A stretch of DNA of 60,617 nucleotides from an uncultured Candidatus Saccharibacteria bacterium (GTDB lineage: Bacteria; Patescibacteriota; Minisyncoccia; Phycocordibacterales; PALSA-1337), in contig CAYHNH010000001.1 in assembly GCA_964358005.1 (NCBI GenBank), positions 144,775-205,391 of the forward strand, read 5' to 3'. Positions 24,158 through 26,284 of the stretch are shown piece by piece; position 1 is the first letter of the stretch; every line of letters begins with the position of its first letter. The position numbers and the translations under genes were made by a program. Under the pieces are notes generated by a model. It made no database searches. It was not told where the DNA came from and was given only the letters and a program-made list of their open reading frames with translations.

Positions 24158-24517
24158 ATGCAGCACCAGGAACAAATAAAGCCTGAAAACGAAATCCTCG
24201 CAGAGAACCTCGGCGTGCTGGCTGATGCTTTTGTGCGCGAAGTCGATGCGGGCAGATACGGAAGCGATATGGACAATCAGGTAACTAGGCTCGCATATGC
24301 AATGAGGGAAACCATCACGGATTTTTCAGAGGAGATCGATGGCCGCAGGGTTGTCACTGACCTCGACAAATTCCAAGCCGATATTGCGGGTATGAGGGAA
24401 ACTGTTCTTGGGCAGTATCCTCCAGTATTGAAACCGACTATAGAAAAGATGTTCAGCAAAGTCATGATTGTAGCCACATCGGCTGAGAATGCTGGTGTTG
24501 AGGCCGAGGCGGCCTAA
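24158..24517 (+). CDS. Hypothetical acidic helical protein
   Basis: 119-aa ORF preceded by tgcTACAAT. Confidence 0.6.
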   Translation: MQHQEQIKPENEILAENLGVLADAFVREVDAGRYGSDMDNQVTRLAYAMRETITDFSEEIDGRRVVTDLDKFQADIAGMRETVLGQYPPVLKPTIEKMFSKVMIVATSAENAGVEAEAA

Positions 24518-24610
24518 AATTTGCGCTCCTTTTGACCTTGTGTTAAGCTAGTTTTTACGCGCCCCTGTGATACTTTTTGGGCGATTTATTAATTAGCATT
24601 AACAATTTAT

Positions 24611-24658
24611 CTTTGGCTCTCGCTGTCTGGCATCACGCCTAGACAATGCGAGCCAAAG
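24611..24658 (+). promoter_or_regulatory. Long hairpin in the tuf 5' leader
   Basis: ctttggc..tcgc.tgtct.ggc-atcac-gcc.agaca.gcga.gccaaag. Confidence 0.5.
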
Positions 24659-24676
24659 CACTAAATCAATAATCAT

Positions 24677-25864
24677 ATGGCAGCAGAATTCAACCGTACA
24701 AAGCCGCACGTCAACGTGGGAACCATCGGTCACATCGACCACGGAAAGTCCACTTTGACCGCAGCTATCGTGGCCGTCCAGGCCAAGAAGGGCATGGCGA
24801 CCGCAAAAGCCTACGCCGAGATTACCAAGGGTGGTACTGTCCGCGATGCAACGAAGACCGTCACTATCTCACTCTCGCACGTCGAGTATGAGAGCCCTCT
24901 CCGCCACTACGCTCACATCGATGCTCCTGGCCACGCTGACTATATAAAGAACATGATCACCGGCGCCGCCCAGATGGACGGAGCTATCCTCGTCGTGTCT
25001 GCTCTCGACGGTGTCATGCCTCAGACCCGCGAACATATCCTCCTGGCCCGTCAGGTCGGTGTGCCTCAGGTGCTCGTATTTTTGAATAAGTGCGATGCAG
25101 TCGAGGAAAAGGACCTTATTGACCTCGTCGAGGAGGAAGTGCGTGAACTCCTCACGAAGTACCAGTTCGATGGCAAGAATGCCCCGGTTATCCGCGGCTC
25201 TGCCCTCAAGGCTCTCGAAGGCGATCCTGTTTGGACCGCTAAGATTGATGAGCTCTTGAACGCCCTTGATACCTATATCCCAGAGCCTGTCCGCGAGAAG
25301 GACAAGCCGTTCCTCATGCCTATTGAGGACATCTTCTCTATCGAAGGTCGTGGAACCGTGGTCACTGGCCGTATCGAGCGCGGCACGATCAAGGTCGGAG
25401 AGGAAGTCGAGATCGTAGGATTCCGCGATACGGTCAAGACGACCATCACCGGCATCGAGATGTTCAACAAGTCTCTCAAGGAGGGTATCGCTGGCGACAA
25501 CGCAGGACTCTTGCTCCGTGGCACAGCCAAGGACGACGTGTCTCGCGGCCAGGTGCTCGCAAAGACCGGTTCGGTCAAGCCTCACACAGAATTCGAGGCA
25601 GAAGTCTACGTTCTCAAGAAAGAAGAGGGAGGCCGTCATACGCCGTTCTTCACTGGATATAAGCCTCAGTTCTATATCCGCACGACGGACGTCACTGGTG
25701 AAGTGACTCTGGCCGAAAAGGTAGAGATGGTCATGCCTGGAGACACAGTCACCTTCAAGGTGAAGCTCGTGGCCCCGGTAGCCCTCGAAGCCCAGATGCG
25801 TTTCGCTGTCCGCGAGGGTGGCAAGACTGTCGGTTCCGGCGTCGTAACGAAGGTGGTTGCTTAA
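24677..25864 (+). CDS. tuf: Elongation factor Tu (atypical switch-I region)
   Basis: [35 protein letters not shown]. Confidence 0.99.
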
Positions 25865-25873
25865 TAAATAGTC

Positions 25874-26284
25874 ATGGCGACAGAGAAACACACAACGAAG
25901 AAGGCTGCTTCAAAGTCAGAGGGTGCTAAGCCTCATGTTGCCAAGGCAGCTCGCGCCAAGAAATCTGCGCACGGCGAGACTCCTCACTTGAGGATCCGAG
26001 TCCGAGCCTATGAGCACAAGATATTGGATGCGTCGCTCCGCCAGATCATGGACACGGCCGCGAGATACGATGCCGAGGTCCATGGTCCAGTGCCCCTGCC
26101 GACAGAGATAAAGAAGTACACGGTCAACCGCTCTTCATTCATCGACAAGAATGCCCGTGAGCAGTTCGAGATGAGGGTCCACAAGCGTTTGATCGACATC
26201 GTGAACCCCAATCCGAAGGTCATCGAGGCGTTGACGAACTTGAGCCTGCCGTCAGGCGTGAATATAGATGTGAAGATGATGTAA
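25874..26284 (+). CDS. rpsJ: 30S ribosomal protein S10 (basic N-extension)
   Basis: LRIRVRAYEH, GPVPLPT, REQFEMRVHKRLIDI. Confidence 0.97.
   Translation: MATEKHTTKKAASKSEGAKPHVAKAARAKKSAHGETPHLRIRVRAYEHKILDASLRQIMDTAARYDAEVHGPVPLPTEIKKYTVNRSSFIDKNAREQFEMRVHKRLIDIVNPNPKVIEALTNLSLPSGVNIDVKMM

Follow-up and report, generated by a model that had tools for sequence, protein, structure and literature searches.

The switch-I loop of EF-Tu is among the most conserved of all protein stretches, and its gene, tuf, is a standard marker of vertical descent. In the canonical protein the conserved Thr of this loop is a Mg2+ ligand, and Asp50 is a second-shell Mg2+ ligand near Thr25. Here we consider a tuf gene whose product has a different loop. 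It lies on a 60,617-nucleotide stretch from an uncultured Candidatus Saccharibacteria bacterium (GTDB lineage Bacteria; Patescibacteriota; Minisyncoccia; Phycocordibacterales; PALSA-1337), taken from assembly GCA_964358005.1 (contig CAYHNH010000001.1, forward-strand positions 144,775 to 205,391). We call this whole stretch the window, and positions are counted from its first letter. Outside the loop region the protein is native to the organism's own order, a Parcubacteria-type order of the Candidate Phyla Radiation (CPR). We argue that the block around the loop was probably imported long ago, by recombination, into the ancestor of the window's family, f1.

The gene (24677..25864, + strand; 395 residues and a stop in the list of open reading frames) is the sole EF-Tu-level match in its genome, which has 771,086 bases on 16 contigs and is 96.46% complete and 0.3% contaminated. 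Four further matches to EF-Tu are other GTPases, with E values of 8e-13 or weaker. The whole protein scores 665.3 bits against TIGR00485 (cut-off 522.4) and 674.3 against PRK12735 (cut-off 479). Solved EF-Tu chains align with it over its full length, and the best of them is 6i8r_A (E = 2.3e-184). Compared with the canonical EF-Tu of E. coli and Thermus (6i8r_A, 1efc_A and 1ttt) it is alike in length and three-domain build, at about 70% identity and E values of 1e-177 to 1e-184. The GTPase motifs G1, G3, G4 and G5 (P-loop, DxPGH, NKCD and SAL) can be read in its translation as in the canonical protein, the gene has the same operon place before rpsJ, and EF-Ts is also encoded in the genome (tsf, 154.9 bits). 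The P-loop reads GHIDHGKS at residues 18-25 (24728..24751, + strand).

What differs is G2, the switch-I string. Residues 31-72 (24767-24892) read exactly as a first-pass annotation of this DNA had given them, and the other strings that it quoted are present too. The canonical string D.APEE.ARGITI is absent. In an alignment with the solved chains the window loop stands opposite 'idkap--eekergiti', so it is two residues longer than the canonical one. We call the canonical loop type A, the KGGTVRD loop type B (a name coined in this analysis) and a third form type C. Type B is defined as I-[AT]-KGGTVRD-xx-K-x-[VL]-TI, two residues longer than type A, and the window EF-Tu fits that definition. Up to residue 51 its numbering is that in general use for E. 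coli EF-Tu. On that numbering the window loop has neither Asp50 nor the Pro-Glu-Glu stretch nor the Gly of RGITI, all of which the canonical protein has. It retains the switch-I Thr as Thr63 (24863..24865, + strand), which aligns with the Thr of GITI in the solved chains, is invariant in our alignment A1 and is kept in all three loop forms. There is also a basic residue, Lys60, where the canonical loop has Arg. The KGGTVRD motif used for surveys is at 24827..24847 (+ strand; pattern match G000:C1:169601-169621, where G000 is the window genome), and this position inside tuf is the only match of the back-translated pattern in the genome. The lost canonical string does not remove the protein from the EF-Tu family, because whole phyla use type B as their only EF-Tu.

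The rest of the protein sides with the CPR. Trees were built from 75 proteins by a quick IQ-TREE search under a site-mixture model, with support from the Shimodaira-Hasegawa-like approximate likelihood ratio test (SH-aLRT); 34 of the proteins are CPR proteins of types A, B and C, and 35 are of type B. All 34 CPR proteins form one clade on residues 76-395 (support 100), as they do on residues 76-200 (95) and 201-395 (100). A tree of residues 76-395 that keeps the 35 type-B proteins in one clade is worse by 125.9 log-likelihood units and is rejected by the approximately unbiased (AU) test (p = 8.7e-6). This is the part that the first-pass annotation had called Parcubacteria-type, and the trees bear it out. 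The closest database proteins are named Taylorbacteria, Paceibacterota, Parcubacteria and Patescibacteria, which agrees with the same label.

Identity counts separate the two parts of the gene. Mean identity to nine canonical proteins of the same order is 0.79 over residues 73-395 and 0.39 over residues 25-72; the corresponding means for 88 non-CPR type-B proteins are 0.66 and 0.71. A single pair of loci makes the point as well. The Verrucomicrobiota locus L186 differs from the window at 6 of 46 residues in 18-63 and at 104 of 318 in 76-395, and the same-order canonical L023 differs at 24 of 44 in the loop block and at 55 of 320 in residues 76-395. There are 26 diagnostic columns at which the same-order canonical consensus differs from the non-CPR type-B consensus. 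In the window all 11 of those between residues 35 and 62 are in the type-B state, and 10 of the 11 between residues 219 and 370 are in the CPR state. From the map of these sites and the group consensus rows, the smallest non-native tract covers the loop and its flank, residues ~33-64 (24773..24868, + strand). The remainder of the G domain together with domains II and III, residues 65-395 (24869..25861, + strand), is native by tree support.

The N-terminal part behaves otherwise when its tree is left free. On residues 1-75 type A is split from B and C together with a support of 99. CPR type B is a clade (96) inside type B, and CPR type C is a clade (98) nested among the type C proteins of Verrucomicrobiota at 82. 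The flank of the loop in the window family, ..AVQAKKG[LM]A..K.Y, is like that of Verrucomicrobiota types B and C; the same-order canonical proteins have a longer and variable flank that is unlike it. Gln35 and KG[LM]A are common to f1 and to Verrucomicrobiota B and C, whereas the B and C proteins of f129, another CPR family, have neither. The type B of f129 shows that Gln35 is dispensable for this loop.

Two residues beyond the loop carry a similar signal. All 21 same-order canonical proteins have Ala83/Tyr89, and all other type A and C proteins that we have seen (about 75) have Cys83/Tyr89. Phe89 is confined to type B: 36 of 51 proteins from Verrucomicrobiota have it, 36 of 50 from Planctomycetota, a further four rows and, in f1, 9 of 18 genes. 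It is absent from all of the roughly 95 proteins of types A and C. The f1 genes with Phe89 always have Cys83 too, and the other nine, the window's included, have Ala83/Tyr89. Among the best 120 database hits the CPR-like proteins read AYI in 45 cases, CF[IV] in 58 and AFV in one.

The distribution of the loop outside the CPR was examined with a back-translated KGGTVRDxxK pattern in a scan of one genome per species, which gave at least 120 stretches. Among the matches listed, 118 of 120 are in EF-Tu reading frames. The type-B matches listed mostly carry Planctomycetota or Verrucomicrobiota labels, and further labels among them are Polyangiaceae/Sorangium, Bdellovibrionota, Elusimicrobiota and Omnitrophota. 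Five of the listed matches (L044, L066, L074, L080 and L148) resemble the window's own family. Five type-B genomes, from Opitutales, Lacipirellula, Sorangium, Bdellovibrionota and Elusimicrobia, are without any other EF-Tu; the Sorangium genome has two equal type-B copies. A sample drawn from the phylum to which an Opitutales genome belongs, Verrucomicrobiota, gave an EF-Tu match in 39 of its 41 genomes, and among the 30 loci listed 8 are of type A, 9 of type B and 13 of type C. A Myxococcota sample matched in 21 of 31 genomes, with type A in 25 copies and type B in 5. Type C, VAKASExxGRRDxxKI[IL]TI, is five residues longer than type A; it starts as type A does and ends as type B does. No full-length protein among the Verrucomicrobiota and Myxococcota loci and the further proteins that we classified falls outside the three types.

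The first-pass annotation described the loop as a signature of the Planctomycetes-Verrucomicrobia-Chlamydiae (PVC) group. It is true that type B is dominant in Planctomycetota and Verrucomicrobiota, but the description is too narrow since the same loop is in the sole EF-Tu of Sorangium, Bdellovibrionota and Elusimicrobiota genomes. Nor can type B be the one PVC form when the Verrucomicrobiota sample itself holds three.

Within the CPR the motif is rare, as a survey of an evenly drawn phylum sample shows. The type B pattern is present in 6 of its 401 genomes, the window's included (families f1, f129, f47 and f46), against one match for a reversed control pattern. The type C pattern is present in two, both from f129. 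In a sample of 151 genomes from the window's order there are four with type B, which are the window genome and G500 (both f1), G479 (f207) and G474 (f202), and 16 with type C, from 13 families. All 16 full-length genes of the window's genus are of type B, and so is the sister genus in f1. It is not an event of this genome alone: the loop is fixed across f1 and it is old. A tree of ribosomal proteins S10 and L3 from 46 CPR loci puts f1, L044 and L080 in one clade with a support of 99, and all of its members are of type B. L161 (f207) stands apart from f1 in that tree and type C is scattered. CPR type C is also on a CPR backbone, and this form is common to Verrucomicrobiota and the window's own order. 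The type C loci are L022, L025, L033, L162-L170, L174 and L176 in the same order, L191-L212 in the Verrucomicrobiota sample, and L254 and L255 in f129. Family f129 has two genera with type B and two with type C, and lineage-specific flanks are common to both.

No second tuf copy was found in the window genome or in the relatives searched, and none of the 147 genomes of the order with a match has two tuf genes. Two genomes deserve a remark. In G514, from the same order, the match comes in two overlapping pieces (G514:C1:57813-59087; query 2-294 and 270-394) within one frame of 429 residues, which suggests an insertion or duplication inside that tuf. G008, from the same genus and 72% complete, has a partial canonical tuf (L034) that is 66% identical to the window's, on a contig of 1842 bases. 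This contig is probably misbinned and from another CPR organism.

The event must be old, and no donor can be named, because third codon positions are saturated and the best non-CPR match is distant. Saturation is evident even between members of the genus (L001 and L006 have a third-position identity of 0.45). A proof of transfer at the DNA level was considered and is uninformative for this reason, with synonymous sites saturated even within the genus. The donor search scored residues 18-66 alone against 5.8 billion proteins, and the best 120 were examined. Of these, 104 have the same CPR build and 14 a non-CPR build, with 41 of 49 residues identical in the top one of the latter; one cluster among these 14 is named Verrucomicrobiota. 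Our best guess from these sequences is that the donor would have been Verrucomicrobiota-like. Two further suggestions of the first-pass annotation, a host as the donor and an altered sensitivity to toxins or antibiotics that target EF-Tu, are speculative, and the nearest non-CPR segments, though labelled Verrucomicrobiota, match at no more than 40 of 46 to 41 of 49 residues.

Inside f1 the tract does not have one fixed extent. Foreign-type states reach at least residue 89 in some genes and stop before residue 83 in others; therefore more than one exchange is called for. Some members have foreign-type states at residues 83, 89, 108, 133 and 141, and those of the window stop before residue 65. 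The window's closest relative in residues 76-395 is L007 (26 of 320 differ), yet 12 of 46 residues differ between the two in residues 18-63 (p 9e-4). Residues 20, 25, 50, 59 and 61 define two loop haplotypes: 11 genes read ISTTT there and 7 read VTASI. In the non-CPR type B proteins sampled, ISTTT is exclusive to Verrucomicrobiota and VTASI nearly so. Each haplotype has its nearest non-CPR segment in a sequence labelled Verrucomicrobiota, with 40 of 46 residues identical, while the haplotypes match each other at 34 of 46. The split at residues 83 and 89 divides the family nine to nine, with H.DCPGHADF[IV]KN in L009, L012, L015-L018, L020, L021 and L160 and the other form in L001, L006-L008, L010, L011, L013, L014 and L019. 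It does not follow the split between haplotypes. We read this mismatch as a sign of recombination inside tuf among relatives. Different regions of tuf also yield different groupings within the family.

The scenario we favor is as follows. An ancestor of f1 would have acquired a stretch of a foreign type-B tuf by homologous recombination. Very conserved coding flanks, the P-loop on one side and the HVEYE/RHYAH region on the other, could have served as arms. The foreign DNA may have been taken up directly, or a second tuf copy may have existed for a short time and passed it on. Recombination between relatives would afterwards have shortened and reshuffled the tract, so that in the window genome it would end before residue 65 and half of f1 would retain the foreign-type C83/F89. 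The mosaic protein would remain a GTP switch, with Thr63 and Lys60 in place and residue 50 tied to residue 25 of the P-loop. The loop type, its distribution, the native backbone and the fixation across the family are observed; that there was a recombination, which way it went and how the protein works biochemically are inferred. The evidence for recombination is good without being conclusive.

It must be noted that a number of results weigh against an import. For residues 1-75 a single clade of all CPR proteins is not rejected by the AU test (log-likelihood difference 17.4, p = 0.278), gaps being treated as missing data so that the shared length difference is unused. The switch-I core, residues 47-64 (24815..24868, + strand), is the only block whose removal restores an N-terminal CPR clade; the remaining 57 columns give it a support of 95. 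The tree signal for a foreign origin thus rests on about 18 type-defining residues. The first-pass annotation had proposed intragenic recombination and, as a check, separate trees for the two parts of the gene. It was right that the free trees of residues 1-75 and 76-395 differ, and the discordant trees, the shared indel, the flank markers and Phe89 are all in its favor; the AU result on residues 1-75 and the missing donor are not. No close donor was found among the 5.8 billion proteins when the loop segment was scored alone. The segment is also not deviant in base composition, with a GC content at third positions of 0.70 against 0.67 for the rest, and at those positions it is 0.30-0.50 identical to the best segments from Verrucomicrobiota. 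Where f1 members have C83/F89, the type-B core is separated from those residues by Ser65-Leu66, which is typical of the CPR; these members are a patchwork and not one clean tract. A consensus quartet test for two separate imports into f1 is circular, as its support comes only from the five sites that define the haplotypes; two imports are a lead, not a result. Finally, B and C of f129 differ in about 7 codons, essentially GGTV against ASEKEGR. Judging from that family, a switch of type without a long foreign tract seems possible.

These points lead to the first alternative reading, in which f1's own canonical or type C loop mutated stepwise in place under structural constraint and converged on type B without any foreign DNA. 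The AU test on residues 1-75, which does not reject one CPR clade, and the CPR-like N-terminal part left after residues 47-64 are removed suit it, and so does f129, where B and C stand so close on common flanks. Type C looks half-way between the canonical loop and type B, and the perfect covariation of residues 25 and 50 described below (160 of 160 proteins) shows that the loop is tightly constrained. Convergence would nevertheless have to arrive at the same string by a two-residue insertion and 11 or more replacements, and there is no intermediate among the classified full-length proteins. Gln35, KGxA and Phe89 with Cys83 also co-occur in f1 though type B elsewhere does not need them, and types B and C are rare and scattered in the CPR (6 and 2 of 401 genomes). 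We consider convergence unlikely. Another route is that a foreign type-B tuf replaced or duplicated the whole gene, and that native-type alleles then overwrote it everywhere except around the loop, through recombination or gene conversion. That would account for the varying reach of the foreign-type states among family members (residues 83, 89, 108, 133 and 141) and for groupings that change with the region, and two tuf copies per genome are known elsewhere, in Sorangium and several Myxococcota. However, no matched genome of the order has two tuf genes (0 of 147; the two matches in G514 are adjacent and in one frame), residues 76-200 are already one CPR clade at 95, and tuf is in its native operon position. 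It too is an improbable history for this gene.

A less biological explanation is that reads from Planctomycetota or Verrucomicrobiota were joined to a CPR gene, in a chimeric assembly or a misbinned contig. Conserved stretches of tuf are prone to mis-joining in metagenome assemblies, and G008 of the same genus does hold an odd canonical fragment on its 1.8-kb contig. Against this, the same structure is in all 16 full-length genes of the genus, which come from separate assemblies, and in the sister genus, and 104 of the best 120 database hits are built alike. The contig is 205 kb long, and tuf is 24 kb in from its edge. Independent Logan contigs from two runs, X1 and X2, which may be the source sample, cover 24315-24976 with one mismatch and 24300-24976 with none; both start in the spacer 5' of tuf, cross the entire segment and reach the conserved core. 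In two other runs, X4 and X5, parts of the stretch have no contig cover. The sequences from X1 and X2 are contigs and not raw reads, but together with the 16 related genes they dispose, at the level of contigs, of the concern in the first-pass annotation about a chimeric assembly. We give an artefact almost no weight. A broader version of the import is that the three forms, canonical, C and B, which do not grade into each other, act as a recombination cassette that crosses phylum borders and was repeatedly taken from a verrucomicrobial partner or host. More than one loop form on a single native backbone is present in Verrucomicrobiota, in Myxococcota and in at least four CPR families. The two haplotypes of f1, whose five-site counterparts among the sampled non-CPR type B proteins are confined or nearly confined to Verrucomicrobiota, would agree with such repeated uptake. 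Episymbionts that scavenge DNA would fit as takers of tuf fragments, and conflict with agents that attack switch I could be the driver. We regard this as a speculative extension that is possible but rather doubtful. Import of the loop block into the ancestor of f1 is still the reading we prefer.

Among 160 type-B proteins residues 25 and 50 are Thr/Ala in 106 (GKT with I-A-KGG) and Ser/Thr in 54 (GKS with I-T-KGG), and they are never mixed. The window EF-Tu obeys the rule with Ser25 (24749-24751) and Thr50 (24824-24826). On a backbone tree of 133 proteins the state of this pair changes at least eight times, and 6 of 6 independent pairs agree (sign test p 0.031). The pattern points to residue 50 packing directly on the P-loop; co-transfer of both residues in one tract would look alike. 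As the sole copy in its genome, the window EF-Tu must deliver aminoacyl-tRNA, which is its predicted role. Section 12 of PMC4342817 describes a monovalent cation in translational GTPases that is bound through a P-loop Asp and a switch-I Gly, a proposed ligand. Types B and C are without that Gly. An AlphaFold2 model from 36 type-B sequences is confident overall, with a mean predicted local distance difference test score (pLDDT) of 85.2; its two switches, I (52-64) and II (86-98), score below 50. The model is therefore silent on the shape of the loop. Loss of EF-Ts was considered as a cause of the loss of Asp50 and is ruled out, since tsf is present in all five type-B genomes searched, the window's and four others.

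The rpsJ gene (S10; 25874..26284, + strand, from the list of open reading frames) is directly 3' of tuf, its usual operon position, and rplC and rplD follow with no gap in the order, so the native placement before rpsJ that was noted at first pass is confirmed. S10 and L3 are located 3' of tuf in 46 of 68 CPR loci. If the ATG at 25874 is the true start, the S10 frame has about 37 extra Lys/Ala-rich N-terminal residues (25874-25985) before its usual start HLRIRVRAYEH. The spacer just 5' of tuf has two stable stem-loops (24541-24665). Folding of 24518-24680 gives a minimum free energy of -47 kcal/mol with a z-score of -4.1, and none of 200 shuffles is equally good. These stem-loops could be the terminator of the upstream gene or a leader structure.

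If the block did move into Parcubacteria, and the three forms are patchy over phyla, then there is a hidden mosaic in tuf phylogenies and in markers built on them. Natural loop swaps on matched backbones would open the roles of Asp50, Pro-Glu-Glu and the Gly of RGITI to study. The loop type might even record the ecological contact of episymbiotic CPR with their partners. The mosaic suggests that even so central a switch in a translation factor can be exchanged across phylum borders. In a full-text literature search, which did not reach supplements or Jenkins and Fuerst 2001, neither the B or C loop nor a mosaic tuf in the CPR was found described, and the string GGTVRD had no match in it. In the passages of Gupta 2012 and Kamneva 2010 that we have seen, Jenkins and Fuerst 2001 is only cited.

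The closest known counterpart of the loop is the type-B EF-Tu of Planctomycetota and Verrucomicrobiota. It has 13-16 of the 16 loop core residues of the window, the same two-residue change in length and the same tie between residues 25 and 50, and its best segment matches at 40 of 46 residues. It differs in belonging to another backbone clade, with about 66% identity to the window in residues 73-395 against about 79% for the canonical CPR proteins of the same order. The closest known counterpart of the proposed process is the mosaic gene. Gene conversion between tufA and tufB and transfer of tuf in enterococci are familiar cases of exchange at this locus. Another gene, tet(M), is cited as a mosaic in PMC4342817. 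Mosaic genes made by homologous recombination are alike in that a short inner block has an ancestry unlike the rest of a conserved gene. The block in the window differs from these in that it forms the effector loop of a translation factor that is essential and single-copy, its partners are in different phyla and there is no DNA-level signal left. Mosaic genes and the transfer of tuf were thus known already; a mosaic across phyla that is centred on the effector loop, and three discrete forms of that loop, appear to be new.

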